From the NCBI GenBank assembly GCA_011523785.1, contig WTFW01000163.1, positions 4,835 to 68,834 on the forward strand: a stretch of 64,000 nucleotides of DNA, read 5' to 3'. Shown here one piece after another: positions 1 to 44,704 of this stretch. Position 1 is the first letter of the stretch. The number at the start of each line of letters is the position of its first letter. The translations under genes were made by a program, and so were the position numbers. The notes below the pieces were generated by a model. That model was given only the letters and a program-made list of their open reading frames with translations, was not told the origin of the DNA and searched no databases. The stretch comes from Chloroflexota bacterium (GTDB lineage: Bacteria > Chloroflexota > UBA11872).

Positions 1-464
1 GGCGGCCGACGTAAAGGTCGCCGCCGATTCCTTCGAGTAGACCTTCGGCGGCGTCAAGGTAGGTGCGAAAGGTTGGGTTGGTGGTGTGGATGTCGGATAC
101 CTCGTCGACCAGAAGGAGGCCGGCGGGTCGTAGCTGGGAGGCCCAGGTCCGCAGCGCGGCGGCGGGGTCGGCGAGGTGCGGCAGCAGCAAGTGGCAGAAG
201 AGCACGTCGGCGGCGCCGGTAGGGAAGGGCGCCCTGGTGACGTCGTGATGGAGGAAGTCAAGGCCGTCAGTGGGTTCGCTCCCGGCAATGTCCAAGAAGG
301 GCTGGGAGGTGTCGAGTCCGACGGTCTTGCGGGCGTTGAGTGTCTCGGCGATGAGGCGGGTGGTGAAGCCGGGGCCGCAGCCGAGGTCGATCACCAGCCT
401 GGGGTCGGGCGGGACGCGGCCCAGGAAGCTCTTGATCTCGGGCGCAAAGACGTAGGCGAGCATG
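1..464 (-). CDS. Class I SAM-dependent methyltransferase. C-terminus runs off the window start. Start codon uncertain: ATG at 462-464, or an upstream CTG near 608-610.
   Basis: Reverse-strand translation gives MLAYVFAPEIKSFLGRVPPDPRLVIDLGCGPGFTTRLIAE...LLLVDE. This is a Rossmann motif I (DLGCGPG) followed by an acidic loop, typical of small-molecule methyltransferases. Confidence 0.6.
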
Positions 465-662
465 CGCAGGCGTTCGGCGGCGGTGTCGTCGTCGCCGAAG
501 GCGTAGGCGGGGTTGGTCAGGGGGATAGCTTTCGTGAGAGAAGAGGGAAGAGGCTGGCGGAATTGTGCCCGAAATCGAAGCTGACTGGAGACCCGGGCAC
601 TGTGATGCAGCTTCGGGTATCGGGCCGAGCTCTTGTGCGTTCAGTTCGGATAGTCTGGCTGT

Positions 663-1022
663 ATGAAGCCCATTCGAGTCGGCGCGGCCGTCGTTCTGCT
701 GCTAGCCGTGGTGGCGTTACTGGCGCCATCGGTGGTGACGAGTGCGGCACCGGTGCTTGGGGTGGTGACGCCGCCCGGGCATGAGGGGCATGACCATATT
801 CACTTGCCGTGGACGCTGCCGGCGGCGGATGCGGAACGGGCGGATGGGACATCGGGGGAGTTCCCGGAGCAGTCGTCGCCGTTTCCGGTGGGGGTGATGC
901 CGGCGGTGCTGGTGGTGCTGCTGGCGGTGTGCATGTTTGAGCGGGTTGGATTCGATATTCGGCGGGTGCGGCTGACGGCCAATGGGCCGCCGCTGCCGCC
1001 GCCCCGGCTGGCCTTGCAGTAG
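663..1022 (+). CDS. Small exported/membrane protein with a His-rich motif (HEGHDHIH) and a C-terminal transmembrane helix. Possible metal-binding protein.
   Basis: N-terminal hydrophobic signal/TM segment (AAVVLLLAVVALLAPSVVTSA), then the motif HEGHDHIHLP, then a C-terminal hydrophobic stretch VMPAVLVVLLAVCMF. First gene of a same-strand run with 1097-2542 and 2472-4772. Confidence 0.5.
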   Translation: MKPIRVGAAVVLLLAVVALLAPSVVTSAAPVLGVVTPPGHEGHDHIHLPWTLPAADAERADGTSGEFPEQSSPFPVGVMPAVLVVLLAVCMFERVGFDIRRVRLTANGPPLPPPRLALQ

Positions 1023-1096
1023 ATGGTTTGCATCCGCGCACCGATGTGCGCGGACTATTCGCGCAAATCCGGTAGCAGCGAGGACTGCCATGCGGA

Positions 1097-2542
1097 TTGG
1101 CGCCGAAGCTGCGAGGTCTGTGTATGAGTTTCGGGAAAAGCCCGACGCGCCTTAGGCGCGGCCTGCTGGCCCTGGCCGTATCCGGGGCGGCACTGGCAGC
1201 GGCTGCGGGCATTGCGTGGGCGCACGAGGGCCGGGAGGTCCACGGGTTTACGTTTGACGTTGGGTTCCTGGTAGAGCCGGCGTATGAGGGTCAGCCGAAC
1301 GGGGTGTACCTGTCGGTGACGCGGGAGAGCGGCGTCGAGTCGGGCCACGGATCGGCCGGCGGGCACGATCACGGCGGAATGGTGGAGACCTCGGACATGT
1401 CGGTGGAGGTGACGGCGGAGGTCGACCCGATCGACGGGATCAACGTGCGCATCATGCCCAGCGGGTTTGCGTTCGCGCCGGAGCGGGTGAACCAGGCGGA
1501 CGTGGACGGCGAGGGGCACGCGCACGTTTACGTGGACGGCGAGAAGGTGGGCCGGGCCTACGGCGAATGGTTCCACCTGAAGGGTGTTGCGCCCGGGGAC
1601 CGCGAGATTCGCGTGACGCTGCAGACGAACGGCCATAGCGAATACGCGGTCGGCGGGCAGACGGTGGAGGCGGCGACGACACTCAGCGTTCCGGCAATGC
1701 CGCCGGCGCCGGAAGAGGTCGGGCAAGTTGAGGCGCCTGAAGGGATGGTCGTCGCAATCAGCCTGGAGCTGGATCCTGTGGGTGGGGCCAACCTGATGGT
1801 GATGCCGCAGGGGTTCACGATGGCTCCTGGGCAGGTCAATGCCCCGAATGTGGCAGGCGAAGGGCATCCGCATTTGTACGTGAACGGGGTGCGGCTGGGA
1901 CGGGTCTACAGTCCGTACCTGCACCTGGGGAAGCTGGCGCCGGGCATTAACGAGGTGCGGGTGACGTTGAATACGAACATGCACCAGGAGTACTCGCGCG
2001 ACGGAGAGACGATCGAAGCGGTAGCGACGATCCACATCCCGGCCGAAGGCGAAGTCCAGACGGATGACGGACACGGGGCCCGGGTTGGTGTCACGGGGCT
2101 GGCGAACAGCCTGGTGGTGGAGGTGACGCACCTGGCGGCGGACATGTCGGCCTCGGGCGTGGCGCGGCGGATGGCGCTGTCGCCGCTGCCGGGGGAGAGC
2201 GGCGGCTACGTGGCGCCGTTTATTCCAACGGTGCCGGGGCCGTACCGGTTCCGGTTTGTGGGGACGATTGACGGTTTGCCGGTCGACGAGACGTTCACGT
2301 CTGGTCCGGGCACGTTCGATGACGTGCGGTCGGCGACGGAGGCGCAGTTTCCGCGGCCGGTGCCGAGCGCGCGCGAGATTGCCGGGGTGGCCACCGCGGC
2401 GCAGTTGCAGGCGCGGGACGCATCGGACGCCTCGGCAACGGCGGTGACCGTTGCGGTTGCCGGGTTGGTGATTGGCGGGCTGGGGCTTGCAACCGGCGTT
2501 GGCCTGGCGTTGCATGCGTTCCGACGGCGTGGCGCGGGGTAG
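1097..2542 (+). CDS. Secreted protein with two tandem ~100-aa domains, each with a G-E-G-H-x-H-(V/L)-Y-V-(D/N)-G motif, plus a C-terminal TM anchor. Uncharacterised; possibly DUF4399-like metal-binding.
   Basis: Signal peptide ...AAAAGIAWA followed immediately by HEG. Internal repeat pairs: VRIMPSGFAFAPERVNQADVDGEGHAHVYVDG versus LMVMPQGFTMAPGQVNAPNVAGEGHPHLYVNG, and REIRVTLQTNGHSEY versus NEVRVTLNTNMHQEY. C-terminal hydrophobic helix VAVAGLVIGGLGLATGVGLAL. Confidence 0.55.
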   Translation: MAPKLRGLCMSFGKSPTRLRRGLLALAVSGAALAAAAGIAWAHEGREVHGFTFDVGFLVEPAYEGQPNGVYLSVTRESGVESGHGSAGGHDHGGMVETSDMSVEVTAEVDPIDGINVRIMPSGFAFAPERVNQADVDGEGHAHVYVDGEKVGRAYGEWFHLKGVAPGDREIRVTLQTNGHSEYAVGGQTVEAATTLSVPAMPPAPEEVGQVEAPEGMVVAISLELDPVGGANLMVMPQGFTMAPGQVNAPNVAGEGHPHLYVNGVRLGRVYSPYLHLGKLAPGINEVRVTLNTNMHQEYSRDGETIEAVATIHIPAEGEVQTDDGHGARVGVTGLANSLVVEVTHLAADMSASGVARRMALSPLPGESGGYVAPFIPTVPGPYRFRFVGTIDGLPVDETFTSGPGTFDDVRSATEAQFPRPVPSAREIAGVATAAQLQARDASDASATAVTVAVAGLVIGGLGLATGVGLALHAFRRRGAG

Positions 2543-4772
2543 TGCATGCGGCCCGCGGCGGGGGCCTGGGCTCCGCTGCGGGCGGCTGGCCCTGGCTGTC
2601 CTAGCCGCGTTGACGGCGCTGGCGCTGGTTGCGGCGCCGTCCGGGGCGCACGCCAACCTGGTGCGGTCGTCGCCGAGTCCAGGGACGGCGGTGGATCCCG
2701 CGCCGCCAGTGGTGTACGCGGAGTTCAGCGAGGCCATTGACCTGGGCTACAGCAGCCTGGAAGTACTGGACGCCAACGGGCAGCCGGTGACCACGGGTCC
2801 GACGGAGCCCGATCCGACTACTCCCACTGCGATGCTGGTGCCGGTGGGGGAGCTGGCGGACGGCACCTACGTGGTGGTGTGGCGGACGCTGTCGGTGGTG
2901 GACGGCCACGTGATTCGGGGGTCGTTTGCGTTTGGGGTGGGCGAGCCGGTGGCGGCGGACGTGGCGGTGGCGGTGGCGTCGATCGAGTCCAGTCCGGCGG
3001 CGGCGGTTTCGCGCTGGCTGCTGTTCGTGGGCGTGGCGGTGCTGATTGGTGGGCCGTTGCAGGCGCTGGTGCAGCGGCGCGGCGCTCAGCCGGAGCGGCG
3101 TCGGGTCGTGGAGCGGCGAACGGCGCTGCTGCTGCTGGGCGGCGGGTTGCTGGCGCTGGCGGGTCAGATCGGGTTGCTGGGGACGCAGATCCTGATCCTG
3201 GGCGGGGACTCGCTACTGGCGGGGTTTGGCGAGGTATTCAGGGCAGGGCAATGGGGCGCGCTTTGGATTGGCCGCACCGCGGCACTTGCTGTGGCGGTGG
3301 TGCTGGCCGACCAGGCGAGTTCGACGTCGGCGGGTGAGCGGCGCCAGGCGCTAGCGTTCGGCGGGGTGGCGGCGGCGGGCGTGGTGATGGCGACGAGCAT
3401 TTCGATGGGTAGCCACGCGGCGGCGCTGGTGGACGTGGGGCCGGCGCTGGTAGCCGACCTGATTCACCTGCTGGCGGTTGGCGCCTGGGTGGGCGGCCTG
3501 CCGGTGTTGCTGCTGGCGGCCTGGCAGGCGCGCGGGGCGAGAACCGGTGGAGCCGCGGCAGCCGATCTGATCGAGGTTGCGGCGCGATTCTCCGCCGTTG
3601 CGACAGTGGCCGTTGGGCTGATCGTGGTGACGGGCGCGTATAGCGCCTGGTTGCAGGTGGTGGAACCGGAGCGGTTGTGGCGTACGGCGTACGGGCTGCT
3701 GCTGGTGGTGAAGCTGGCACTGGTTGCGCCGCTGCTGGCGCTGGGCGGGGTGAACCTGGGGTGGACGCGGCCGCGGCTGGCGGGGGCTGGCGCGGCCGGG
3801 GCGCGTGCGGCGAGAGCGCTGCGGACGCTGGTGGTGGCTGAGATCGTGCTGGCGGCGGCCGTGCTTGCGGTGGTGGGCGTGCTCACGGAGCGGGAGCCGG
3901 CGCGGCAGGTCAGCGGCGACGTGCCGCTGGCGGTGGAGGGTGCCGGGGCAAGTGGCGACACGAGGGTTCGCGTGCGGGTGGCGCCGGGGCGGCCGGGCCC
4001 GAACACGCTGGAGGTTGACCTGTCGTCCCAGGACGGACGGGTCAACGACGCGGATGTTGAGTTGCAACTCAGGTATCTCGATACGGACCTGGGGACGACC
4101 GTTGAGCGTCCGGTGCGGACCGAGGAGGGGACGTTCGAGGCGGAGACCGATGCGTTCGCGCTGGCGGGGGCCTGGCAGGTGCTGGCGATCGTGCGGCAGC
4201 CGGGGGCGTTCGATGCGCGGGTGCCGGTGCGGCTGAACATCGGGTCTCCCACGGCGATTGGCGTAGCGGAAGTAGACGTGACGGTGGCGGTGCGGCTCTG
4301 GGGGCTGGCGCTGGCGGGGATGGGATTTGTGCTGGCGCTGGCCACGCTGGCCCGGCAGGGATGGGCGGCGCGGGTTCGCCAGGCGGGGACCGGAGCGGGA
4401 TTCGCGGCGATTCTGCTGGGGGCCGGGTTGCTGATCATCGGGCCGCAGCAGGGCGTGGCGCCGTCGGCGGTGAACCCGATTCGGCCGGATGATGCTTCAG
4501 TCAGCGCGGGTCGCGAGATCTTTGAGGCCGAGTGCGTGAGCTGTCACGGGCCGACAGGTCGCGGGGACGGTCCGCTGGCGGCGACGCTGGATCCGCCGCC
4601 GCTGGACCTGGTGATCCACGTGCCGCTGCATCCGGACGACGCGCTGTTTGGGTTTGTGTTCAACGGGATCGAGGGCACGGGGATGCCGGCGTTCGGGGAT
4701 CGCTATGGCGAACTGGATACGTGGCACATCATCAACTTTATCCAGACCCTGCCGGAAACGGCGCGGAGCTAG
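2472..4772 (+). CDS. Copper resistance/uptake-like fusion protein: CopC domain, CopD multi-TM domain, YtkA-like domain, and a C-terminal mono-haem cytochrome c domain. Likely start is ATG 2514 or nearby.
   Basis: CopC signature after the signal peptide (HANLVRSSPSPG...YVVVWRTLSVVDGHVIRGSFAFGV). A long polytopic hydrophobic region follows, typical of CopD. A YtkA-like beta-sandwich segment follows (TLEVDLSSQDGRVNDADVELQLRYLD...GAWQVLAIV). Then a TM helix and a CxxCH haem site (FEAECVSCHGPTGRGDG...GMPAFG) with a downstream Met ligand. Confidence 0.75.
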   Translation: MAGWGLQPALAWRCMRSDGVARGSACGPRRGPGLRCGRLALAVLAALTALALVAAPSGAHANLVRSSPSPGTAVDPAPPVVYAEFSEAIDLGYSSLEVLDANGQPVTTGPTEPDPTTPTAMLVPVGELADGTYVVVWRTLSVVDGHVIRGSFAFGVGEPVAADVAVAVASIESSPAAAVSRWLLFVGVAVLIGGPLQALVQRRGAQPERRRVVERRTALLLLGGGLLALAGQIGLLGTQILILGGDSLLAGFGEVFRAGQWGALWIGRTAALAVAVVLADQASSTSAGERRQALAFGGVAAAGVVMATSISMGSHAAALVDVGPALVADLIHLLAVGAWVGGLPVLLLAAWQARGARTGGAAAADLIEVAARFSAVATVAVGLIVVTGAYSAWLQVVEPERLWRTAYGLLLVVKLALVAPLLALGGVNLGWTRPRLAGAGAAGARAARALRTLVVAEIVLAAAVLAVVGVLTEREPARQVSGDVPLAVEGAGASGDTRVRVRVAPGRPGPNTLEVDLSSQDGRVNDADVELQLRYLDTDLGTTVERPVRTEEGTFEAETDAFALAGAWQVLAIVRQPGAFDARVPVRLNIGSPTAIGVAEVDVTVAVRLWGLALAGMGFVLALATLARQGWAARVRQAGTGAGFAAILLGAGLLIIGPQQGVAPSAVNPIRPDDASVSAGREIFEAECVSCHGPTGRGDGPLAATLDPPPLDLVIHVPLHPDDALFGFVFNGIEGTGMPAFGDRYGELDTWHIINFIQTLPETARS

Positions 4773-5251
4773 GCGCGGGCGCGGCGGCGGGCGGACCAGG
4801 TGTGGGCGGCGACGGCCGCGAAGAAGCCGCCGATGACCAGAACGCTGGGCACGACCCAGTTGGTGGGGGCCAGATCGAGCGAGTGCGAGAGTTTGGCGGG
4901 CCCGAGGGCGCTGGAGATGTCCAGGACGAGGTTCCAGTGGACTTCCTCGGGGCTTTGCTCGACGAATTCGTAGACGGAACCTGACTCAAAGGCCGTGTAT
5001 TGGGCGATGTTGACGCCGTTCTCGAAGACGGTCACGCGGACCTCGGCGCCGGGAATCCTGGCACCGGTAGAGACGTTGCGGAGGTCGACGGAGTAGTCGA
5101 GCCAGCCCTCGGCCCAGTTGGCAAAGGCGCGAACCTGGTAGGGGCCGGCGGCGCCGGTGTAGACGAGGTCGCCGCCGTGGGCCAGGACGGGTGTTGACGA
5201 CAGGGTAACGAGAGCTACAAGCACCGGCAGGAGGCGGGCGAAACCCCGCAT
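4769..5251 (-). CDS. Exported protein with His as the predicted first mature residue (HGGDLVYTG...) and a C-terminal TM anchor. CopC/YtkA-like beta-sandwich candidate.
   Basis: Signal peptide MRGFARLLPVLVALVTLSSTPVLA followed by H. C-terminal hydrophobic VVPSVLVIGGFFAAVAA plus basic tail. Its stop overlaps the stop of the converging 2472-4772 gene. Confidence 0.5.
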   Translation of the reverse strand: MRGFARLLPVLVALVTLSSTPVLAHGGDLVYTGAAGPYQVRAFANWAEGWLDYSVDLRNVSTGARIPGAEVRVTVFENGVNIAQYTAFESGSVYEFVEQSPEEVHWNLVLDISSALGPAKLSHSLDLAPTNWVVPSVLVIGGFFAAVAAHTWSARRRARA

Positions 5252-6225
5252 TAGTTCAGCGGCGGACCAGCCACGGCGGCGACGGCGGGTTCGAGTTCAA
5301 CCGCGCCGACCAGGCCCTCGAAGCGCGCGGCCACGCGCCCGGTAGAGTCGACCACGAAGACCCAGGGTTCGGTTTCGAGCTTCCACTCGCGGGCGGCGTC
5401 TGCCCATTCGAGGCGGCCCTCGGTGCGGGCGACAGCGAGATCGAAGGGCTCGATGTGGATGAAGCGCAGGCGGTCGCCAAAGTTTCGGGAGAGCTCGCCG
5501 ACGACGGCGGTAACAGGCCCGCACATGGCCGAGGTGCAGAACCCGGGGGTGCTGAAGGTCACCACCAACGGCTCGCGTCGGGCCAGCGCATCCGCGATTG
5601 AGTGATCGTAAAGAGCGGGGAGGGGCGGATCGGCGGTTGTCAGGGTTTCGAGGTTGAGTACGTCCCGGCTCGTGAGGTTAGCGAAGGCCGGCGCGGCGTC
5701 GCCGACGCGAGGAGCTGAGGTGCGGCGGCCGACCTGGAAGGCGGTCGACGTGGCGTAGGCCGAGCCGAAGGCTGGCTCCACTTCCAGGTCGGCGCGCCAG
5801 AGGCCTTCCTCGAAGTCGGCGTCGGCGACGAGGTAGTAGGAGCGCGATGCGTCGTGGACGTGGACGGCGCCGTCCGCGTGAACATGGTCGTAGCTGGCGC
5901 CGGCGACGTGCTCGCGGGCGGGCGCTTCGAAGCGAAACTCGTCGCGTTGACCGATCAGGCGGATGAAGCGCACGTTGATGTTCGCGCCGGTGACCAGCCC
6001 GCCGTCGCCGTCCACCAGGACGAAGGGAAAGCGGTGGGGTCCGGGGAGCATTTCGTTGACGGCGAGGAGGACGCTGATCCGGGGGTTGGTCGGCAGTTCG
6101 CCGCAGGCGGAAAGCCAAACGGCGAGTGCCGGGGCTCCAAGGGCCAGCACGCCGAGCAGCCTTCGTCTTGGTATCTCGCGTGCGTGGCGGGTCGGGGGCT
6201 GACTGAGAGGGTCGGGTCTGTCCAC
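5251..6225 (-). CDS. Tat-signal lipoprotein with an N-terminal His-containing beta domain and a C-terminal thioredoxin-fold (Sco/TlpA/redoxin-like) domain with a CTSAMC motif.
   Basis: RRRLLGV twin-arginine motif and lipobox LSAC. HVHADGAVHVHD His cluster. Thioredoxin-like block APAFANLTSRDVLNLETL...PLVVTFSTPGFCTSAMCGPVT. Start/stop overlap with 4769-5251 suggests an operon. Confidence 0.6.
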   Translation of the reverse strand: MDRPDPLSQPPTRHAREIPRRRLLGVLALGAPALAVWLSACGELPTNPRISVLLAVNEMLPGPHRFPFVLVDGDGGLVTGANINVRFIRLIGQRDEFRFEAPAREHVAGASYDHVHADGAVHVHDASRSYYLVADADFEEGLWRADLEVEPAFGSAYATSTAFQVGRRTSAPRVGDAAPAFANLTSRDVLNLETLTTADPPLPALYDHSIADALARREPLVVTFSTPGFCTSAMCGPVTAVVGELSRNFGDRLRFIHIEPFDLAVARTEGRLEWADAAREWKLETEPWVFVVDSTGRVAARFEGLVGAVELEPAVAAVAGPPLN

Positions 6226-6256
6226 ACAGGCAGTCTAGCCAGTCAAGGCCGGCCGC

Positions 6257-6271
6257 CAACCTGTTAGGTTG
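6257..6271. promoter_or_regulatory. Candidate DtxR/IdeR-family operator: the palindrome CAACCT-GTT-AGGTTG in the divergent promoter region between the dtxR-like gene and the 6225-4769 operon.
   Basis: The two 6-bp arms are exact reverse complements and the half-site TTAGGTT matches the classical DtxR/IdeR box half-site TTAGGTTAG. It lies 27 nt upstream of the regulator's start codon. Confidence 0.45.
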
Positions 6272-6297
6272 CGGACCCTCGCTATATTTGAGTCACG

Positions 6298-6993
6298 ATG
6301 TCAGAGCCGCGGATTTCAGCCAGCGATCAGGACTACCTGCGGGCGATCTACGACGCGGGTGGGCACGAGCGGCGTGTGGGAACAGGTGAAGTCGCCGGTG
6401 AACTGAATCTGACGCAGGGGGCGGTGACATTCGCCTTGCAACGGCTGCATGAAAAGGGGCTGGTCAACTACCGGCGCTACCAGGGGGCGCGGCTGACCGA
6501 GGATGGCGAGCGCCACGCGCTGGAAATGGTGCGGCATCACAGGCTGATCGAACGTTTCCTGGTGGAGTTTCTGGACTACGACTGGAACGACGTGCACGAA
6601 GAGGCTGACCGGCTGGAGCATGTGATTTCGGAGGAAATGGAGCGACGAATTGCGGCCAAGGTGTCCGACCCGACGACCGACCCGCACGGGGACTCGATTC
6701 CCAACGAGGCGCTGGACGCGCTGCAGGCCGACGACGCCCGGCAGTTGACAGGGGTTGCGGACGGTACGGACTTTGTGGTGGCGCGGGTGCGGGACCGCGA
6801 CCGGGCGGTGCTGGAGTACCTGACGGAAATCCAGCTCGTACCGGGGACGGAGGCCAGCGTGGTCCGACGACTGCCGTTCGATGGACCGCTGGTGGTGCGC
6901 ATTGAGTCGGAAGAGGTGGCGCTGAGCCAGACGGTGAGCGACAGCGTGTTCATTCGCGACGCAGAGCGAGGTTCGAGTCCTCAGCGCAGCTGA
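6298..6993 (+). CDS. DtxR/IdeR/MntR-family metal-dependent transcriptional regulator with a C-terminal SH3-like (FeoA) domain.
   Basis: N-terminal wHTH (DYLRAIYDAGG...VAGELNLTQGAVTFALQRLHEKGLV), dimerisation/metal-site helix (RHHRLIERFLVEFLDYDWNDVHEEADRLEHVISEEMERRI), and a C-terminal FeoA-like beta domain. Confidence 0.9.
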   Translation: MSEPRISASDQDYLRAIYDAGGHERRVGTGEVAGELNLTQGAVTFALQRLHEKGLVNYRRYQGARLTEDGERHALEMVRHHRLIERFLVEFLDYDWNDVHEEADRLEHVISEEMERRIAAKVSDPTTDPHGDSIPNEALDALQADDARQLTGVADGTDFVVARVRDRDRAVLEYLTEIQLVPGTEASVVRRLPFDGPLVVRIESEEVALSQTVSDSVFIRDAERGSSPQRS

Positions 6994-7011
6994 AGCTGAG
7001 GGCTGGTTCGG

Positions 7012-8121
7012 CTAGCGGAGCGCGGCTTGTCGGGCGGCTTCGCGCCCCGCGGCGGTGAGGCGGAGCTGGTCGTTTTCGAGGTCGATGAGACCGCGTTCGG
7101 TGGCGGTGTGGACGACGCGGTTGGCGAATTCGGGGGGCCAGCGCATGTGGCGTTGCATGTGGTCGGGGCGGCTCTCGTCGGCCTCGGTGGGCGTGCCCTC
7201 GTGGGTGGCGAGGTGGATGAGCAACATCTGGCGGGCGAAGGTCCAGCGCTGGCGGCGGCGGCGACGGGCGGTTGCGACGAGGCCGCGCTGGGGGGCGAGA
7301 AACAGGACCAGGATGAAGGCGATGCCGACCACGGTGGCCATGGACCCGGCGATGCTGGCGTCCAACAGGCGAGCCAGCCAGTAGCCGCCGACGGCTGAGG
7401 CGGCGCCGATAACGACGCTGAGACCGAGCATGCGGGGCAGCCGGTCCGTGAGCAGGTAGGCGGCGGCCGGCGGACCGATCATGAGCGCGACGACCAGGAT
7501 CGATCCGACGGCGTCGAAGGCGCCGACGGCGGTGACCGATACCACCGCCATGAGACCGTAGTGGACAAGCGCGGGCGAGAAGCCGAGCGCGGCGGCCAGC
7601 GCGGGGTCGAAGGTGGCCAGCTTGAGTTCTTTAAAGAAGAGAGACGCGCCGGCAAGGTTGACCACCAGGATGGCGCCCATGACCCAAAGCGCAATCGGTC
7701 CCAGGTCCACCCCGAATGGCGCGAATCGGTTGAACGGCGCAAAGGCGATCTCGCCAAGTAGCACGACATCGCTGTCCAGATGAACGTTGCCGGCGAGGCT
7801 GGAGATCAGAATCACGGCGATAGAAAAGAGGGCGGGGAAGACGAGGCCGATGGCGGTGTCTTCGCGAACGAGACCGGTTCGGCTGACCATCTCGACGAGG
7901 ACCACCGTCAATAGCCCGACGAGGGCGGCGCCGAGGATGAGGACCGGCGAGTTGAGATCGGCGACGACAAAGAAGGCCAACACGATGCCGAGCAGCACGG
8001 TGTGGCTGATGGCATCGCTCATCATCGCCATGCGACGCAGCACCAGGAACGTGCCGGGGATTGCGCACGCGGCGGCGACGACAACGGCCACGAGCAGAAC
8101 GTCGATCTGGGCCGACGTCAT
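7012..8121 (-). CDS. ABC-3 family (Mn/Zn/Fe chelate) transporter permease with a C-terminal cytoplasmic DtxR-N-terminal-like winged-helix extension.
   Basis: Polytopic ABC-3 permease core. After the last TM the tail TFARQMLLIHLATHEGTPTEA...RVVHTATERGLIDLENDQLRLTAAGREAARQAAL aligns with the DtxR N-terminus (TEMYLRTIYELEEEGVTP...TVARMERDGLVVV...LQMTPTGR). Confidence 0.85.
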   Translation of the reverse strand: MTSAQIDVLLVAVVVAAACAIPGTFLVLRRMAMMSDAISHTVLLGIVLAFFVVADLNSPVLILGAALVGLLTVVLVEMVSRTGLVREDTAIGLVFPALFSIAVILISSLAGNVHLDSDVVLLGEIAFAPFNRFAPFGVDLGPIALWVMGAILVVNLAGASLFFKELKLATFDPALAAALGFSPALVHYGLMAVVSVTAVGAFDAVGSILVVALMIGPPAAAYLLTDRLPRMLGLSVVIGAASAVGGYWLARLLDASIAGSMATVVGIAFILVLFLAPQRGLVATARRRRRQRWTFARQMLLIHLATHEGTPTEADESRPDHMQRHMRWPPEFANRVVHTATERGLIDLENDQLRLTAAGREAARQAALR

Positions 8122-9251
8122 AGATCGGCGGACGGCGTACGCCGCAGTCGAGCCAACCGGTCGGCTTCAGCCAGGCCGCGGGGGGTCAGCGACCAGCCGC
8201 CGGCATCGTGCCGCTGGGCCAAGCCATCGGCGGCGAGTTCGCTGAGTGCGCGATCCACGAGGGCGCGACCGCGCACCGCATGCAGGGCGGCGATATCGTG
8301 CGGACGGGTGGCGTCTGAGCTGTGTTGCGCCGCGAGCGCCGCCAAGTCCGACATCACAGCTTCGAGCGCCAGGATTCGCTGGCTGCGCCAGGCGTGCATG
8401 CGGGTCCACACGAGGCCGCGGGCCGGCGCAACGAGCAGGGATACGACCACCAGACCAGTGGCGACCAGCACGATCGTGGGTCCGGTAGACGTCTGGGCCG
8501 TGGTGCTGATCAGCGCCCCCAGCACGCCGGCCGCAGCGCCGAACAGGGCGGAGAGCGTGACCATGACCCCGAGGCGGTTGGTCCACTGGCGGGCGGCGGC
8601 CCCTGGCGCCACGACCATCGCGCTCATCAGGACCACGCCGACGGTCTTGAGACCGACGACGATGGCGATGACGAGGAGGCTGGTGAGGAGCAAATCCAGG
8701 CGCCGGGTGGGCACTCCAAGCGTGGCGGCGAAGTCCGGATCGAAACTCAGCAGCTTGAACTCTTTCCAGAGCACCAGCACCCCGAGCAGACCGACGGCGC
8801 CGACCGATGCCATGGTGATGACATCGCTTTCGAGCATGGCGGCGGCCTGTCCGAACAGGAACTTGTCGAGCCCGGCCTTGCCGGCAGCGGGCCGTCGCTG
8901 GATGAAGGTCAGTACGACCAGCCCGGCGCCAAAGAAGACGCTCAGCATGAGGGCCATGGCGGTATCGGTCTTGACGCGGGAAGCGCGAATGATGCCGGCG
9001 ATGGCCACGGCTGCGAGCCAGCCGGTGAGGGCCGCGCCAATCATCAGCACCAGCGGCGCGCGGCTGCCGGTAATCAGGAAGGCCAGGGCGACCCCGGGCA
9101 GCGCGGCATGCGACATGGCGTCGCCGAGCAGAGCCTGGCGACGGAGCACGGCAAAGGCGCCGAGAGCGCCGCTGACGATGCCAAGGGCGGCGGAGCCCAG
9201 CGCGACGGTTCGCAGCGTGTAGTCCAGGGCCATGTCGCTCAGCACATCCAC
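8118..9251 (-). CDS. ABC-3 family metal transporter permease (second permease), also with a C-terminal DtxR-like winged-helix extension.
   Basis: Polytopic permease core. Tail ...ALSELAADGLAQRHDAGGWSLTPRGLAEADRLARLRR resembles the DtxR wHTH wing and the start of the RKHRL helix. It has a 4-nt overlap with the downstream permease. Confidence 0.85.
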   Translation of the reverse strand: MDVLSDMALDYTLRTVALGSAALGIVSGALGAFAVLRRQALLGDAMSHAALPGVALAFLITGSRAPLVLMIGAALTGWLAAVAIAGIIRASRVKTDTAMALMLSVFFGAGLVVLTFIQRRPAAGKAGLDKFLFGQAAAMLESDVITMASVGAVGLLGVLVLWKEFKLLSFDPDFAATLGVPTRRLDLLLTSLLVIAIVVGLKTVGVVLMSAMVVAPGAAARQWTNRLGVMVTLSALFGAAAGVLGALISTTAQTSTGPTIVLVATGLVVVSLLVAPARGLVWTRMHAWRSQRILALEAVMSDLAALAAQHSSDATRPHDIAALHAVRGRALVDRALSELAADGLAQRHDAGGWSLTPRGLAEADRLARLRRTPSADL

Positions 9252-9287
9252 CGGTTCTGCGGTCCTAGCGACGCACGAGCGGTGGGT

Positions 9288-10067
9288 TCACGCCAACATG
9301 TCCAGAGGGGTCGCGTTGGCGCGGCCGCCGATTCCGGCAACTCGACCGCCGTAGGTGAGGCGCAGGTTCTCCTCAGTGAAGACCTCGTCGACGGGTCCCG
9401 CGGCGATGCGGCGTACGTTGAGGAGGGTGACCTGGTCGAAGTATTCGGCGACGGTTTGCAGGTCGTGGTGCACGGCGACGACCGTTTTACCGGCGGTGCG
9501 CAGAGCGCGCAGCAAGTCGACAATGGCGCGCTCGGTGGTGGCGTCGACTCCCTGGAACGGCTCGTCCATCAGGTAGATCTCGGCGTCCTGGACCAGCGCC
9601 CGCGCCAGAAAGACCCGCTGCTGCTGACCGCCCGAGAGTTGGCTGATCTGGCGGTCGGCGTAGTCCTGCATCCCCACTTGCTCCAGGGCGGCGGTGGCGC
9701 GCGAGCGCTCGGACGCTCCGGGACGCTTTACCCAACCCAGGCTGCCGTAGGTGCCCATGGTGACGACATCCAGTGCGGTGGTGGGAAAGTCCCAGTCCAC
9801 GCTGCCGCGCTGGGGGACATACGCGACCAGCCCTCGCTGTTCGAGGTAGGAGCGGCCGAACACGAGAACCTCGCCGGCAGCCGGCCGCAGCAGACCGAGC
9901 AACGTTCGCAGGAGGGTAGTCTTGCCGGCGCCGTTGGGTCCTACGATGGCCATCAGGACGCCCCGTGGAACTTCCAGGTCCACGTCCCACAGAACGGGCC
10001 GCTGCTGATAGGCCAGGGTGAGGTCGGTGGCCTGGACGGCCAGGGCGTTGCCGGTGCGAAGGCGCAC
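9288..10067 (-). CDS. Metal ABC transporter ATP-binding protein (ZnuC/MntA-like).
   Basis: Walker [13 protein letters not shown] signature LSGGQQQRV, Walker [14 protein letters not shown]-loop AVHHD. Confidence 0.92.
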
Positions 10068-10069
10068 GC

Positions 10070-11044
10070 CTATGCCTTCCGCAGCGCCGCGACGATGGTG
10101 TCGATGTTGTGGCGAATCATGCCGAGATAGGTGCCTTCCTCGGTGCCCTCCGCGCCCATGGCGTCGGAGAAAATCTCGCCGCCGATCGTCACGGTGTGAC
10201 CGCGGGCGGCGGCGGCCTCGATGACTGCCTGCACGCCCTGATCAGGCACCGACGACTCGATGAAGACCGCCGGGATCCCACGCTCGCTGATAAAACGCGC
10301 CAGCTCCTGCACGTCGGCCGTGCTGGCCTCGCTCTCGGTGCTGATGCCCTGCAGGCCGCGCACCTGCATGCCGTAGCGGTTGGCGAAGTAGTTGAAGGCG
10401 TCGTGGGCGGTGATGAGGACGCGCACACGTTCTTCGATTTCCTGCGCGCGCGCCTTGACATACATGTCCAGTTCGGCGATCTCGGCGATGTAGGCGGCGG
10501 CATTGGCGCGGTAGGCCTCGGCTCCCTCGGGGTCCATGGCGACCAGGGCGTCGCGGATGGATTCGACCGCCGTCGACCAGAGGTCCAGGTCAAACCAGAC
10601 GTGTGGGTCGTAGGCGCCGTCGAACTCGGGCGGAGCCAGGAGGCGGGTCCGGTCAATGTGGTCGGTTACGCGGATGGAATGGACACCGAGATCGACCATG
10701 CGTTCAAGGACGCCGGACATGCCGGCTTCCAGGTGCAGGCCGTTCCAGAAGACGGCGTCGGCCGATTCGAGGCGGGTAATGTCGCTTTCGCTGGCCCGGT
10801 AGAGGTGGGGGTCAACACCGCTGCCCATGAGGCCCTGGACCTCCACGCGGTCGCCGCCGACGTGGCGCACGGCGTCGGCAATCTGGCCAATGGTTGCGAC
10901 AACGCGTAGCGGGCGGCCGTCCGCGAGATCGACGGGCGCCGGCTTGCTCGCGGCTGGGACTGATTCGCCGGCCGCATCGGTCTCGCAGGCCGCCAACGCC
11001 AAGACGGCCAGCAGTAACCCGGCCACCAGCGCCACCGTCCGCAC
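10070..11044 (-). CDS. Metal ABC transporter substrate-binding lipoprotein (TroA/ZnuA/MntC cluster 9 family). The track ORF extends to 11083 via TTG; a GTG start at 11044 gives a clean lipoprotein signal.
   Basis: [20 protein letters not shown] lipobox. Family blocks [26 protein letters not shown] and [15 protein letters not shown]. It has a 4-nt overlap with the ATPase gene. Confidence 0.88.
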
Positions 11045-11189
11045 TTCTGACCCTTTCACCTGTTGGACACTGCGCAAACTCAAAGAGCGCGCCGCTTTAC
11101 AGGCACCCTGTAATCCAACTTCGCTTATCTAAACAAAAGTTTTGAGCCAGGTCAAACCAGCCGAGATGTGCGAGCGACCTGGACGATTG

Positions 11190-12437
11190 CTAGGTGGCGC
11201 CTCGGCGCCGCGCGGCTGGGGCGGATTCGCCGGCGGCGATGGCGAGGAGGGCGGAGAGGGCGGCGAAGGCGAGCATGGTGAAGGCGCTGGCGGTGAAGTC
11301 GAGGACGTCCACGGCGACGCCGAGGCCGAGGGGGGTGAGGGCGACGCCGATATCGCGCAGGAAGGCGTGGGTGCCGAGAGCCGCGCCCAGACGCTCGCGC
11401 GGGGCGCGGTCCACGACGGTTGAGGTAATGGTGGGAATCGCGCCGCCGCCGAGGCCAAAGGCCAGGCCGAACAGTACATAGGTGGCGGCGTTGCCGGCCT
11501 GGCTGACGAGGACGCTGACCAGGCCCATGGCCAGCGCGCTGGGCACGTAGACCCAGAGGCGTCCGTAGCGATCGGACATGGCGCCGGCGACGATGGCCAC
11601 GGGGAAGCGCATGAGGGTGGAAAGGGAGATGGCAATGCCGATCAGGAACGGCTGGAGGTTGAGGACCTCGCCGCCGAAGAGGGGATAGAAGAAAGCCTTG
11701 AAGCCGAAGATGGGGACCGCCAGGGCCATGGCCATGCCGTTGACGAACAGCAGACGGCCGGGCGAGTAGATCGCGCGGCGGGCGAAGCGCAGGGGGCTTT
11801 CAGGTCGGCCGGGGCTAAGTGTGGACGCCTGGGCGGGCGGCGGGTCGTCCTTTACATAACGTTTCACCATGAACATCCCGGCCAGGATGGCCAGGACGGT
11901 CAGGAGCATGCCGATGCGCCAGTGGGCCAGGGTGGCGACGGCGCCGACGACGACGGGGGAGAGGAAGCCGCCCATCATGGTGGCGGAGCTAACGGCGCCT
12001 AGCATGCGCCCGCGCTCGCGTTCGGGAGCCTGGCGGGCAACGTAGGCCTGGGCGGCAGCGCTGGCGGTGATGGACCCCGCGCCCTCGACGATGCGGCCGA
12101 GCAGGAGCAGCCAGTAGAAGGGCGCCGCAACTGTAAGTATGACGCCGAGGATGGCCAGCGCGCCGCCGCCGTAGAAGAGGGGATGCAGGCGAATCCGGTC
12201 GACCAGGGCCCCCATGGGCAGGTTGATGAGAAGGCGGGCGACGGCAAAGCTGGCAATGAGCGCGGCGAGGGCCGTTCCGGCAGTGTCCTCGAGATTGAAG
12301 TCGCGGCTGATCGGCGCCAGGACCGAGGCGATGGAGCCGTTGCCAAAAGCGACGGCCACGGTAATGGCCATGGACGCCAGCACGTCGCGCGGCAGATCCA
12401 GGACCGCGAGCCAGGGGAGGCGGCGACGGGGTGGCAT
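11190..12437 (-). CDS. MFS transporter.
   Basis: Twelve-TM-like hydrophobic profile. MFS motif-A-like GALVDRIRLHPLFYGG and a second-half repeat MSDRYGR. Confidence 0.8.
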   Translation of the reverse strand: MPPRRRLPWLAVLDLPRDVLASMAITVAVAFGNGSIASVLAPISRDFNLEDTAGTALAALIASFAVARLLINLPMGALVDRIRLHPLFYGGGALAILGVILTVAAPFYWLLLLGRIVEGAGSITASAAAQAYVARQAPERERGRMLGAVSSATMMGGFLSPVVVGAVATLAHWRIGMLLTVLAILAGMFMVKRYVKDDPPPAQASTLSPGRPESPLRFARRAIYSPGRLLFVNGMAMALAVPIFGFKAFFYPLFGGEVLNLQPFLIGIAISLSTLMRFPVAIVAGAMSDRYGRLWVYVPSALAMGLVSVLVSQAGNAATYVLFGLAFGLGGGAIPTITSTVVDRAPRERLGAALGTHAFLRDIGVALTPLGLGVAVDVLDFTASAFTMLAFAALSALLAIAAGESAPAARRRGAT

Positions 12438-40744: not shown

Positions 40745-42385
40745 ATGACGCTGGCAGACTCCCGGACCGAGGCCTCGGACGCGCGCGACGGCCGTCGCTT
40801 CATGCACGCGATCGAGTACAGCCTGCGCTGGCTCGAAATCAACGCCGAGGCGATCGACCGCCTCAACGTCTATCCCGTGCCCGACGGCGATACCGGCACC
40901 AACATGGTCCTTACGCTGCGCGCCGCCATCCGCGAGGCGACGGATAACCCCTCCACCAACGTGGACGCGGTGGCTGCGCACTTGGCGCGGGGCGCCTTGC
41001 TCGGTGCGCGGGGAAACTCCGGTGTCATCTTGTCCCAGATCATTCGCGGCCTTGCCGAGGGCCTCGACGGCCACCGCGAGTTCGGCATCGCCGAATTCAG
41101 CACCGCCCTCGAACGTGCCTACCAGGTTGGCTACAAGGCCGTCACCAATCCCGTCGAGGGCACCATCCTCACCGTGGCCCGCGACGCCGGCGAAGCCGCC
41201 CAGGCCGCGCAGACCCAGGTCGAGTCGGTGGAGGAACTCATCGCGCAGGTCGTGGATGCCACCCGCGAGTCCGTGGCCAACACGCCCAACCTGCTGGACG
41301 TCCTGGCTGAAGCTGGTGTGGTGGACGCCGGCGGCCAGGGCCTGCACGTCATCTACGAAGGTCTGCTGCGCTCACTCCGCGGCGAGCCGCTGCCCGAGTC
41401 GGCGGACCTCGACCGGGCGACCGATGTGTTCGCCGCCTTCGCGGAAACCCACCAGGCCGACGAGCACGGCTTCTGCACCGAATTCGTGGTGCACGGCACC
41501 GACCTGGACGCCAATGCGATGCGAACCGAGTTCGCCAAGATCGGCGAGTCGCTTCTGGTGGTGGGCGACAACAGCCTTGTGCGTGTGCATATTCACATCG
41601 AGAGGCCCGGCGACGTCTTTAACGCGGCCATGTCCTACGGCGAGATCGACCAGCTCAAGGCCGACAACATGGACCTGCAGCAGGCACGAAACTTCGAGGG
41701 AGCGCTGGCCGAGGCGACCGAGCCGCCACCGCCAGCCAACGGCGTGATCGCGGTGGCCAGCGGCGAGGGCCTGGAAGAGGTCTTCCGCAGCCTGGGCGTG
41801 GACGTCGTGCGCGGCGGCCAGAGCATGAATCCCAGCGCGGGCGAACTGCTGGAAGCCATCGACCGCACGCCCGATGACTGGGCGGTGGTGCTCCCCAACA
41901 ATTCCAACATCTATCTCACGGCCCGCCAGGCCGCCGAGCAGTCCGACAAGAACGTGCACGTCATCGCCACGCGCACGCTGCCCCAGGGCTTCTCCGCCGC
42001 CCTGGCGTTCAATCCCGCCGACGCCTCCGAAAGCAACGCCGAGGCCATGAGCGAGGCTGCTGGTGACGTCACCACGTTGGAAGTCACCAAGGCGGTGCGC
42101 GACGCCGTGCTGGACGGCAACCCCGTCGCCGAAGGCGAATTCATGGGCCTGCTGGACGACAAGTTCGTCGCACGCGGCGAGATGCCGCACCCGGTCATCA
42201 TGCAAATGCTGGAACAGGTCGCCGAAGACGAACCGGAAGCCCTCACGATCTACGTGGGCCAGGCCACGCCGGATTCGGCAGCCCGCGAACTCGCCGCGGA
42301 GATCAGCGAGCGGTACCCGGACATGGATGTACAGACGGTGGCGGGCGGCCAGGACCACTACGACTACATCATCGCGGCTGAGTAG
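40745..42385 (+). CDS. DAK2 domain fusion protein (YloV family).
   Basis: DGDTGTNM, RGNSGVILSQI, and the C-terminal domain. Conserved rpmB/yloV-recG neighbourhood. Confidence 0.85.
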   Translation: MTLADSRTEASDARDGRRFMHAIEYSLRWLEINAEAIDRLNVYPVPDGDTGTNMVLTLRAAIREATDNPSTNVDAVAAHLARGALLGARGNSGVILSQIIRGLAEGLDGHREFGIAEFSTALERAYQVGYKAVTNPVEGTILTVARDAGEAAQAAQTQVESVEELIAQVVDATRESVANTPNLLDVLAEAGVVDAGGQGLHVIYEGLLRSLRGEPLPESADLDRATDVFAAFAETHQADEHGFCTEFVVHGTDLDANAMRTEFAKIGESLLVVGDNSLVRVHIHIERPGDVFNAAMSYGEIDQLKADNMDLQQARNFEGALAEATEPPPPANGVIAVASGEGLEEVFRSLGVDVVRGGQSMNPSAGELLEAIDRTPDDWAVVLPNNSNIYLTARQAAEQSDKNVHVIATRTLPQGFSAALAFNPADASESNAEAMSEAAGDVTTLEVTKAVRDAVLDGNPVAEGEFMGLLDDKFVARGEMPHPVIMQMLEQVAEDEPEALTIYVGQATPDSAARELAAEISERYPDMDVQTVAGGQDHYDYIIAAE

Positions 42386-42400
42386 CGGCCAGCGGCGCTG

Positions 42401-44704
42401 ATGTCGGCCGACCCGGAGGCGGCGCTGGCGCGGGAAGCGCGGCGGCTGCTGGAGGCCGAGGCGTCGGCTGGATTCGACGACTCCTCGACTCCCGGCGGGA
42501 TCTCGCGCTGGGTTGCCAGCGAGGGCCGGAATACGAGGGCCCTGACGCGCCTGTCACAGTACTCACGGCTGCGGCCACGCACCCGCGAGGACCTGGCGCG
42601 TGCCGTCCTCGCCGATCTGGGAACGGCCGCTCCGGCTCCCTCCCGCGGACGCGATGCTGATGCCTCCGTGACCGCACTGCCGGGGGTGGGCGCCGCCGCT
42701 GAGAAGCGGCTGGCTGCGCTTGGTATTCAGACGGTCAGCGATCTGCTCCATCACCGGCCGCGTCGCTACATCGATCACTCGTCCGTCGTTGCGATCGCCG
42801 AAGCGGAACCGGGACGCGAAGTCACGGTAATCGGCGAAGTCGTCGAAATCCGCGCCAGACCGGCTCGCTCAGGCCGCGTGCGCGTGGTCGAGGCGGCCAT
42901 CGCGGACGAAACGGGACAGATCCTCGCGGTCTGGTTCAACCAGGTCTACCTGGTCAAGACCTTGCGCGGTCGGCGCAACGTAGCGTTCGCTGGCCGCGTG
43001 GAATCGGCGGCCTACGACCGCCAGCTCACCAGCCCTGAGTATGAGCTGGATGTACACCGCATGGTGCATGCCGGACGGCTGGTGCCGGTTTACCCGCTTA
43101 CGCGCGGGCTCTCGCAGCGGCAGTTGCGCCGCTGGATGTCGCTGGCGGTTGACGACTACGCCGCGTCCGTCCCGGAAACGCTCGGTGCGCAGCAGCGCCG
43201 GACGCACGGGTTGCCGGACGTCGCGACGGCCATCCGCAATCTTCACTTTCCGGTTGATTCGGCCGCCAGAGATGCCGCCGCGCGGCGCTTTGCATTCGCC
43301 GAATTGCTGGTCTACCAACTGGCGATCCTGCGCCGCCGCCAGACCTGGCGTGAAAGCCAGCCCGGACGGCCCGTGCAAATCCACCGCGACGCACTGGCGG
43401 CCTTCGGCGGGCAGTTGCCATTCAAGCTGACCGACGGACAGCGCGTGGCCGTCGCCGAGGTGCTGACCGACCTGCGGCGCGAGCGTCCAATGAGCCGGCT
43501 ACTCCAGGGCGACGTCGGCTCCGGCAAGACCGTGGTGGCCGCGGGGGCATTGCATGCCATCGTCGGCGACGGCTGGCAGGGCGCCATCATGGCGCCAACT
43601 GAAGTCCTGGCCGAACAGCACACCGCAACCCTGCGCGAGCTGCTGGCGCCGCTGGGCGTCCGCGTGGAACTCGTCACCGGCAGCGTTCCGGCCGCCGACA
43701 AGCGCCGCATCTGGCGCGATGTGGAACGCGGCGGCGTGAACGTGGTCGTCGGGACGCAGGCCATCATCCAGCGCAGCGCCCGTTTCGATCGTCTGAACCT
43801 GGCGGTCGTGGATGAGCAGCACCGGTTTGGCGTGCAGCAGCGCGGCGAGATTCGCGCCAAGGGTTACAACCCGCATTTGCTGGCCATGTCCGCCACGCCC
43901 ATTCCGCGCACGCTGGCCCTCACCGTCTACGGCGATCTGGACATCAGTGTTCTGCGCGAGTTGCCGCAAGGGCGGCGCCCGGTGGAGACGTCATTCGTCC
44001 CCAACCACCGCCGCGGCGACGCCTATACCTTCATTCGGCGTGAGGTCGCGGCGGGCCGGCAGGCCTTCATTGTCTTTCCGATCATCGACGAGTCGGAGAG
44101 CCTTAACGCCCGCGCCGCGACCGAGGAGCACAAACGGCTCACGCGCGGCGCGTTTGCCGACTTGGCGGAGGAGGTCGGGCTCTTGCACGGCCGCCTGAGC
44201 GGCGCGGCCAAGGATCGGGTCATGCGAGCCTTCCGCGACGGCCAAATCAAGATCCTGGTCAGCACGTCCGTGATCGAGGTTGGGATCGACGTCCCGAACG
44301 CCACCGTGATGCTGATCGAAGGGGCGGAGCGATTTGGATTGGCGCAGCTGCATCAGCTCCGCGGGCGTGTGGGTCGCGGGGATCACCCGTCGCACTGCCT
44401 GCTGATGAGCGAGACGACCGACCCACGGGAAAACGCGCGGCTGCGAACGCTCCAAACGGTGCGCGATGGCTTTACGCTCGCTGAAAGGGATCTCGAACTC
44501 CGGGGTCCCGGGGATGTGCTGGGAACCAGGCAGAGCGGGGCGCTGGGATTCCGCTTCGCGTCGGTGACCGACCTTCCCACGATTCAGTCGGCGCGCATCG
44601 ACGCCGAACAGTTGATGAGTGCGGACCCCGGGCTGAACCGGCCCGAGCACGCCGGATTGGCCGCCGCCGTGGAGCGGCTGCTCCAGCGCAACGAGTGGAA
44701 CTGA
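42401..44704 (+). CDS. recG: ATP-dependent DNA helicase RecG. The first ~90 aa are low-complexity, so the true start is possibly later.
   Basis: Wedge/OB domain, Walker A LQGDVGSGKT, DEQHRFGV, TPIPRT, and the C-terminal TRG motif region. Confidence 0.9.
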   Translation: MSADPEAALAREARRLLEAEASAGFDDSSTPGGISRWVASEGRNTRALTRLSQYSRLRPRTREDLARAVLADLGTAAPAPSRGRDADASVTALPGVGAAAEKRLAALGIQTVSDLLHHRPRRYIDHSSVVAIAEAEPGREVTVIGEVVEIRARPARSGRVRVVEAAIADETGQILAVWFNQVYLVKTLRGRRNVAFAGRVESAAYDRQLTSPEYELDVHRMVHAGRLVPVYPLTRGLSQRQLRRWMSLAVDDYAASVPETLGAQQRRTHGLPDVATAIRNLHFPVDSAARDAAARRFAFAELLVYQLAILRRRQTWRESQPGRPVQIHRDALAAFGGQLPFKLTDGQRVAVAEVLTDLRRERPMSRLLQGDVGSGKTVVAAGALHAIVGDGWQGAIMAPTEVLAEQHTATLRELLAPLGVRVELVTGSVPAADKRRIWRDVERGGVNVVVGTQAIIQRSARFDRLNLAVVDEQHRFGVQQRGEIRAKGYNPHLLAMSATPIPRTLALTVYGDLDISVLRELPQGRRPVETSFVPNHRRGDAYTFIRREVAAGRQAFIVFPIIDESESLNARAATEEHKRLTRGAFADLAEEVGLLHGRLSGAAKDRVMRAFRDGQIKILVSTSVIEVGIDVPNATVMLIEGAERFGLAQLHQLRGRVGRGDHPSHCLLMSETTDPRENARLRTLQTVRDGFTLAERDLELRGPGDVLGTRQSGALGFRFASVTDLPTIQSARIDAEQLMSADPGLNRPEHAGLAAAVERLLQRNEWN

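Follow-up and report, generated by a model that had tools for sequence, protein, structure and literature searches.

In Bacillus subtilis, the CopC and CopD sites of YcnJ, a CopC-CopD-YtkA protein of the ycnKJI operon, are required under copper limitation, and Cu(II) is exchanged between YcnI and the CopC domain of YcnJ (PMC13344008, PMC12362106). The YtkA domain of YcnJ overlaps functionally with CtaK, together with Sco, in assembly of the CuA site (PMC13344008, PMC12362106, PMC9145763), a process that generally needs Sco and a PCuAC- or CtaK-type protein, with TlpA reducing the cysteines (PMC9145763). Here, we describe a locus of five genes, named P1 to P5, and an adjoining regulator gene, REG, on contig WTFW01000163.1 of a Chloroflexota bacterium, in a stretch of 64,000 nucleotides that was analyzed as a whole (the window). 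Among described systems, this locus works most like YcnJ-YcnI plus CtaK/Sco/TlpA. In a strict sense, only P3 is a member of a known family, and even P3 stands apart through its conserved fusion to a cytochrome c and its obligatory association with P1 and P2.

The cluster is not one five-gene unit. It comprises an obligate trio, P1-P2-P3 (module 1), and a separable set in which REG is divergent from a P5-P4 gene pair (module 2). We lean towards reading the locus as a two-module system for extracytoplasmic copper acquisition and metallation. Its parts differ in strength: module 1 likely handles copper, and for module 2 the same role is conceivable but falls somewhat short of an even chance. The initial annotation had proposed a periplasmic copper acquisition or metallation system for all five genes; for module 1 this proposal is supported by the CopC/CopD fusion and its CopC ligands, whereas the metal of module 2 is uncertain in view of its manganese-type regulator. 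The genes and elements are as follows:

P1, 663-1022, plus strand: small membrane protein of 119 amino acids (aa)
P2, 1097-2542, plus strand: 481 aa from a TTG start
P3, 2472-4772, plus strand: CopC-CopD-(YtkA-like)-cytochrome c fusion, 766 aa from a TTG start
P4, 4769-5251, minus strand: exported protein of 160 aa
P5, 5251-6225, minus strand: lipoprotein of 324 aa
Palindrome CAACCT-GTT-AGGTTG, 6257-6271, no strand: candidate operator in the 72-bp P5-REG intergenic region
REG, 6298-6993, plus strand: DtxR/MntR-family regulator of 231 aa
ABC-3 metal importer operon, 7012-11083, minus strand: ZnuA/TroA-family binding protein, ATPase and two permeases (Pfam ABC-3, ABC_tran, ZnuA)

Co-conservation of the two modules

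Module 1 is defined by its gene order in relatives. In 27 of the 36 full-length relatives of P2, the downstream sequence extends for 1.5 kb or more, and the next gene is P3-like in all 27. Among 45 repeat-only or partial relatives of P2 with the same length of downstream sequence, P3 was found only behind two full-length genes cut at contig ends. P1-like open reading frames (ORFs) precede P2 in distant loci. Module 1 occurs without module 2 in four loci (L001, L004, L099, L116). Conversely, REG with P5-P4 occurs without P2 and P3 in L002, L025, L027 and L172/L173, and P5-P4 occurs without both REG and module 1 in L003 and L171. The two modules lie side by side in L090 and 12 close species, and REG, P5, P4, P3 and P2 are all retained at approximately 45-60% identity in L024 and L098. 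The association that the initial annotation described therefore extends beyond close relatives, although not as a single five-gene unit, because the modules also occur separately.

Could the modules be functionally unrelated neighbors, their convergent adjacency being no more than synteny inherited in one Chloroflexota clade? The occurrence of either module alone would fit this view, as would the convergent transcription, because of which the two do not form one operon. We nevertheless judge it improbable, as the adjacency is held at the identity levels of L024 and L098, and members of both modules meet elsewhere in other arrangements. P5-like genes occur immediately ahead of P2-P3 in L106 and close to genes resembling P2 or P3 in L079 and L060. 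YtkA-type, P4-like ORFs precede P1-P2-P3 in L118, L124 and L135. In L170 (2-2510), a P4-like gene comes after an unannotated gene of 451 aa, which itself follows the C-terminal portion of a P3-like gene, and in L174 (2-1144) a fragment of a P19-type Iron_transport gene is followed by a P4-like gene and a CopC-like gene. A YtkA-type fold is, moreover, predicted to be common to P3, P4 and P5.

The P3 fusion and its partners P2 and P1

The domains of P3, all on the plus strand, are the following:

2649-2939: CopC domain (Pfam CopC, 2e-18)
2997-3884: CopD domain with eight transmembrane (TM) helices (Pfam CopD, 1e-22)
3957-4181: YtkA-like domain (Pfam YtkA, 19.2 bits, E 0.002, under the 25.9-bit cut-off)
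4296-4439: pair of TM helices (topology prediction)
4497-4751: cytochrome c (Pfam Cytochrome_CBB3, 1e-10)
4533-4547: heme motif CVSCH

A signal or anchor segment precedes CopC, and the predicted topology is coherent, with CopC, the YtkA-like domain and the cytochrome c all placed outside the membrane. The fusion named in the initial annotation (CopC, CopD, YtkA and cytochrome c) is thus recovered, its YtkA part by a weak, sub-threshold match; an NCBIfam CopD match over residues 177-476 also lies below the equivalog cut-off. His60, the residue after the predicted cleavage site (SGA/H), and D144-G-H146 align with His1 and the D-x-H motif of 5icu, 6tpb and 9c14, the last being the CopC domain of YcnJ. 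Because His1 and D-G-H are kept in this alignment with solved CopC proteins, the Cu(II) histidine brace of P3 is predicted to be intact. P3 shares with YcnJ the CopC-CopD-YtkA-like order, the outward position of the soluble domains and the CopC brace, and adds two TM helices and a c-type cytochrome. One C-terminal CxxCH was present in every complete P2-linked P3 partner retrieved. Our literature search returned no description of a CopD-cytochrome c fusion or of this architecture, which is weak evidence of its absence.

These features bear on an alternative in which the locus confers copper resistance, the histidine-rich exported proteins buffering copper and the cytochrome and thiol domains detoxifying it, as was first proposed for Pseudomonas CopCD and Helicobacter pylori CrdA. 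Family and depositor names still record CopC/CopD and CrdA as resistance determinants, histidine-rich sites are many in the locus, and in L003 a multicopper oxidase, P-type ATPases and a cation diffusion facilitator (CDF) exporter lie next to P5-P4. However, the closest tested architecture, that of YcnJ, supports growth under copper limitation (PMC13344008, PMC12362106). The CopC domain of P3 has only the Cu(II) brace site, as in the C0-1-type structures with which it aligns, and no CopA- or CusF-type efflux genes are found in the cluster. Furthermore, SCO1/SenC (2e-49) and PCuAC (1e-38) genes lie immediately upstream of P2-P3 in L099 and L100, in the position taken by P5-like genes elsewhere, and these neighbors in L099 point to cuproenzyme assembly. 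We therefore consider a resistance function decidedly improbable and retain acquisition and metallation as the favored reading.

P2, the first obligate partner of P3, is an exported protein with a C-terminal TM anchor (2444-2500), and its predicted mature N-terminus is His34 (codon 1223-1225). Its internal feature is:

1379-1693 and 1721-2038, plus strand: two GEGHxH beta-sandwich repeats that interrupt the terminal beta-segments

The AF2 (AlphaFold2) model of P2 has a predicted local distance difference test (pLDDT) score of 79. In it, N- and C-terminal beta-segments flank two repeat domains modeled with very high confidence, a TM helix comes after them, and the closest structural match is CrdA, a copper protein. 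The N-terminal histidine (AWA/H) is kept in 53 of 54 P2-family sequences. Within repeat 1, three histidines (H132, H134, H171) are near-invariant, and repeat 2 is degenerate; E35, E51 and E55 are conserved candidate partners for a brace. As to family labels, the repeats gave DUF2846/PEGA-like matches, all below cut-off. DUF4399 (PF14347), which the initial annotation had suggested searching for, matched neither P2 nor its 54 relatives, and sub-threshold matches appeared only in P0105 (26 bits, cut-off 28) and P0102, both of them remote proteins that consist of the repeat type alone. Searching the P2 family profile against PDB sequences yielded spurious matches only, such as Tudor and FlaA. Beyond the P2 architecture, the GEGHxH repeat domain itself occurs widely in metagenomes, as in proteins P0104 and P0106. 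Some repeat-only relatives carry an N-terminal cupredoxin-like domain, and in L008 and L009 (8001-9176) an EB_dh heme-domain gene has a repeat-domain gene two genes upstream of it.

In P1, a GHEGHDHIH motif lies between an N-terminal signal or TM helix and another TM helix, and a PPPR motif is found C-terminally. Searches with tblastn did not detect P1 in most distant loci. The ORFs read upstream of P2 in these loci are small P1-like proteins with an N-terminal TM helix, which share an invariant H-x-H (H43, H45) within 'GH(E/x)xHxH' or 'DHHFAER..GHxH' and a C-terminal PP(x)PPR. Between P1 and P2, a hairpin with a 9-bp stem is present at 1033-1054 (TCCGCGCAC-cgat-GTGCGCGGA) with no T-run after it, and the fold of this intergenic region was not significantly more stable than shuffled sequence (z -1.7).

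The five ORFs of the initial annotation were all found again, as were the HEGHDHIH, GEGHAHVYVDG, GEGHPHLYVNG and CTSAMC motifs, and an N-terminal hydrophobic segment in each of the five products agrees with the exported or membrane character assigned to them; P1, P2 and P4 carry an additional TM helix (C-terminal or second), and P3 is polytopic. Two starts may lie further downstream: ATG at 1124 for P2 (1124-2542) would give 472 aa and a cleaner signal peptide, and ATG at 2514 for P3 is an alternative with which the 71-nucleotide overlap of P2 and P3 may be shorter. The stop codons of P3 (4770-4772) and P4 (4769-4771) overlap, and the P5 stop overlaps the P4 start at 5251. Cleavage sites of P2 (AWA/HEG), P3 (SGA/HAN) and P4 (VLA/HGG) were placed by the -3/-1 rule only.

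The P5-P4 pair and its divergent regulator

P5 is a two-domain lipoprotein, whose lipobox Cys41 (6103-6105) is conserved in at least 90% of the family. The following features are encoded on the minus strand:

5758-6090: N-terminal YtkA/CtaK-like domain
5266-5628: C-terminal thioredoxin-like domain
5521-5538: invariant C230-x4-C235

Besides both cysteines, residues P237, H257, E259 and W288 are invariant in the family. The window copy of P5 has no Pfam match. Among 69 family members, YtkA was found in 30 at E<=0.01 (best 2e-6) and Thioredoxin_2 in 10, and a PDB profile search retrieved the TlpA-like thioredoxin 3ia1 (E 2e-4), with the alignment confined to the C-terminal beta-alpha part. Where the initial annotation saw a Tat lipoprotein with a thioredoxin/Sco-like domain, the lipobox holds and the thioredoxin likeness is weakly supported, but the Sco assignment fails: SCO1-SenC (PF02630) matched neither P5 nor 69 relatives, the motif is C-x4-C, and hhalign against the genuine SCO1 of L099 gave a probability of 0.6%. 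The Tat label could not be confirmed, as the RRR motif is not kept across the family, in which the consensus is a single R. In contrast to the separate CtaK (YtkA)/PCuAC, Sco and TlpA factors, P5 joins YtkA/CtaK-like and thioredoxin-like domains and would thereby fuse both activities in one polypeptide. Its thiols are spaced CxxxxC, not CxxC as in TlpA, with an invariant histidine 22 residues later and an invariant glutamate, as compared with CxxxC...His in Sco. Species-representative genomes hold at least 591 matches to P5, almost all of them in Chloroflexota.

P4, the second product of the pair, has two parts, also encoded on the minus strand:

4871-5170: YtkA/CrdA-type beta-sandwich
4799-4855: C-terminal TM helix, followed by an arginine-rich tail

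Its mature N-terminus is His25 (5177-5179), and its AF2 model (pLDDT 90.9) shows one beta-sandwich and the C-terminal TM helix, with CrdA again the best structural match. P4 is a YtkA/CrdA-type beta-sandwich, not a DUF1775 protein. That domain, considered for P2 and P4 in the initial annotation, was absent from both in the Pfam search, and their folds match CrdA/P19, not YcnI. At the sequence level, the match of the P4 profile to CrdA is marginal (E 0.007), and compared with H. pylori CrdA (PDB 9ll2) and P19/Tp34/FtrA, P4 adds the N-terminal histidine hallmark and the C-terminal TM anchor. A relationship between P4 and the N-terminal domain of P5 was detected by hhalign (77% probability, E 2e-5), and a profile search of the full library with P4 returned only about 115 representative clusters. 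Homology of the terminal domain of P2 to P4 is not established, as hhalign, with and without in silico removal of the repeats, covered the signal peptide, AH(G/E)G and the first strand alone (49-59% probability).

The 'A/HGG' N-terminal histidine of P4 is invariant in 17 of 17 close relatives and kept in at least 90% of 49 representatives at 20-43% identity. With the P2 counts, this supports the first-residue histidines noted in the initial annotation: conservation in both P2 and P4 exceeds chance and is a family hallmark. D28, W50, D52, E95 and H123 are conserved candidate brace partners in P4. A further histidine, His150, lies inside the TM helix; it is invariant in the 17 closer relatives and not kept in the wider family. 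Like YcnI, P2 and P4 are membrane-tethered beta-sandwich proteins with a conserved histidine as first mature residue. However, P2 differs by its two inserted GEGHxH domains, and instead of a DUF1775 protein, P3 has P1 and P2 as its obligate partners. We consider P2 and P4 analogous rather than homologous to YcnI.

REG has the three domains of its family (Pfam Fe_dep_repress, Fe_dep_repr_C and FeoA, the last an FeoA/SH3-like C-domain), and its best NCBIfam match is MntR, below cut-off. PDB matches to 5zr4, 8pvt, SloR and ScaR (E 6e-37 to 3e-22) are stronger than those to IdeR/DtxR (1e-20 or weaker). Aspartate occupies the positions of DtxR Met10 and Cys102, and 'QDYL' and 'HEEAD' align with the manganese sensors 5zr4, SloR and ScaR; we take these aspartates to indicate manganese rather than iron responsiveness. 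On its domains and selectivity residues, REG would belong to the manganese-responsive subgroup of the DtxR/MntR family. It is divergent from P5-P4 across the 72-bp intergenic region in the window, adjoins the pair in the same way in L002, L024, L025, L027, L098 and L172, and probably controls the expression of module 2. The palindrome in this region is perfect and its exact sequence occurs only there in the window; it was exact in 10 of 11 close-species loci scanned, and the other two matches listed have two mismatches. A search of the intergenic regions between REG and P5 at distant loci did not recover it. We regard it as a candidate operator.

Manganese repressors such as MntR, SloR, ScaR and TroR accompany ABC-3 importers, and REG likewise adjoins an ABC-3 operon. 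In contrast to those cases, the divergent partner that REG keeps from lineage to lineage is P5-P4 and not the ABC-3 operon, and we know of no described MntR regulon member of the P5-P4 kind. The ABC-3 operon is present in 10 of 12 close species, is absent from the distant loci keeping REG-P5-P4, and is probably a separate manganese/zinc uptake system. An AT-rich 11-bp palindrome, CAAAAGTTTTG, lies at approximately 11125-11135 in a GC-rich region upstream of the ZnuA-family binding-protein gene; it differs from the REG-P5 palindrome, and therefore the two promoters may not share an operator. The permeases (7012-8121 and 8118-9251, minus strand) have C-terminal cytoplasmic extensions of approximately 90-100 aa each, one of which weakly matches the winged-helix family PF25213 (E 7.5e-4), which suggests regulator-like domains fused to the transporter.

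The regulator raises the possibility that P5-P4 belongs to a manganese/iron regulon within a general metal island, being controlled by REG jointly with the ABC-3 importer, and binds or processes these metals outside the membrane or protects exported proteins from oxidation under manganese scarcity. REG is divergent to P5-P4 over 41-190 bp in six independent lineages, also without the ABC-3 operon, and to this are added its manganese-type residues, the palindrome in the shared intergenic region, the P19/Tp34/FtrA proteins among the fold neighbors of P4, the P19-type gene adjoining a P4-like gene in L174 and CDF exporters recurring near P5 relatives. On the other hand, an N-terminal histidine ligand is, to our knowledge, almost confined to copper sites (CopC, YcnI, LPMOs), and cysteine is an unusual ligand for manganese. 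P4-like and P5-like genes are repeatedly found beside CopC/CopD genes, SCO1 and PCuAC replace P5 in L099, CrdA, the best structural match of P4, is a copper protein, and in L003 (4173-14657) P5-P4 lies beside the multicopper oxidase without the regulator. That metal-homeostasis island also holds, besides the CDF exporter, an ArsR-type regulator, two P-type ATPases and Fur; a DtxR-type regulator is absent from it. We hold a manganese/iron role for P5-P4 to be unlikely, and copper remains the preferred metal, although its assignment to this pair is only inferred, because module 2 shares its intergenic region with a manganese-type regulator and abuts the ABC-3 importer.

Searches for homologues assign the window to a lineage of Chloroflexota metagenome-assembled genomes. 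Around the locus, a minus-strand gene ending near 520 forms the left flank of P1. A scan for sigma-70 promoters and intrinsic terminators returned nothing informative. The gene pair at 40745-44704, sized like P2-P3, encodes FakA and RecG and is not a paralogue. GC skew on the plus strand, calculated for positions 1-12000 of the window, was positive in nearly every 500-nucleotide interval (0 to 0.30), whatever the orientation of the genes.

Proposed copper route and its significance

In the copper acquisition and metallation reading, P2, with its N-terminal histidine and the three-histidine site of repeat 1, and the histidine-rich P1, perhaps with P4, would capture Cu(II) and funnel it to CopC, much as YcnI serves YcnJ. 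By homology to the tested YcnJ of B. subtilis, the P3 CopC domain would bind Cu(II) through the His1/D-x-H brace and hand it to the eight-TM CopD domain. The outward-facing cytochrome c could give the electron that turns Cu(II) into Cu(I), either no later than translocation or ahead of transfer to the YtkA-like domain, and CopD would then import copper, or the YtkA-type domains would pass it onward. P5, as a CtaK/YtkA-type chaperone domain joined to a TlpA-like thiol-active domain (Cys-x4-Cys, His, Glu), and P4, as its membrane-tethered partner with an N-terminal histidine, may deliver copper to an extracytoplasmic cuproprotein site such as CuA or keep its cysteines reduced, a task that in other systems falls to Sco plus PCuAC or CtaK, with TlpA.

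Several observations weigh against this reading. Unlike ycnKJI, with its YcnK-type copper repressor, the Chloroflexota locus has no copper-sensing regulator (CsoR, YcnK, CueR or CopY type) in the cluster or its flanks; the sole regulator nearby is of manganese type and the neighboring transporter is of the ABC-3 family. Neither a cuproenzyme client among the annotated genes of the window nor a CuA motif over its entire length was found, and, unlike CuA-assembly factors, P5 has no oxidase genes near it there. The relatives of the P4 fold include the iron-binding P19/Tp34/FtrA proteins, and the P19-type gene before the P4-like gene of L174 points the same way. The similarity of P2 to P4 is confined to the N-terminal segment. 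P1, P2, P4 and P5 lack curated family membership, none of the four matching Pfam or NCBIfam, so that the curated-family labels offered for them in the initial annotation fall away. Most distant P5 relatives have no fixed partner and none of these genes beside them: clustering of the neighbors at 71 distant P5 loci gave no dominant partner, CDF and ABC-2 genes each occurring in only about 8-9 loci, and many of the neighbor clusters are antisense shadow ORFs typical of high-GC DNA. Finally, the role of the fused cytochrome as a reductase, which we purely infer, is rather unlikely to be correct.

Taken jointly, P3 would be a reductive importer, in which respiratory electrons drawn by the cytochrome turn CopC-bound Cu(II) into Cu(I) for CopD, P2 and P4 would represent two new N-terminal-histidine copper families of the histidine-brace type on the YtkA/CrdA fold, and a manganese sensor would switch P5-P4; that all of this holds together seems doubtful to us. 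If it does, copper loading of exported enzymes would be coupled to manganese status.

For CopC/CopD-type importers, it is unsettled how copper moves and which oxidation state crosses the membrane, and the conserved importer-cytochrome c fusion with two obligate histidine-rich partners provides a directly testable hypothesis of reductive import. P1, P2, P4 and P5 represent four protein families beyond the present coverage of Pfam and NCBIfam, of which P2 and P4, given their nearly invariant N-terminal histidine, may enlarge the small set of histidine-brace copper proteins. The pairing of a chaperone-like module with a manganese-type regulator hints at copper-manganese cross-talk in an abundant, mostly uncultured phylum.

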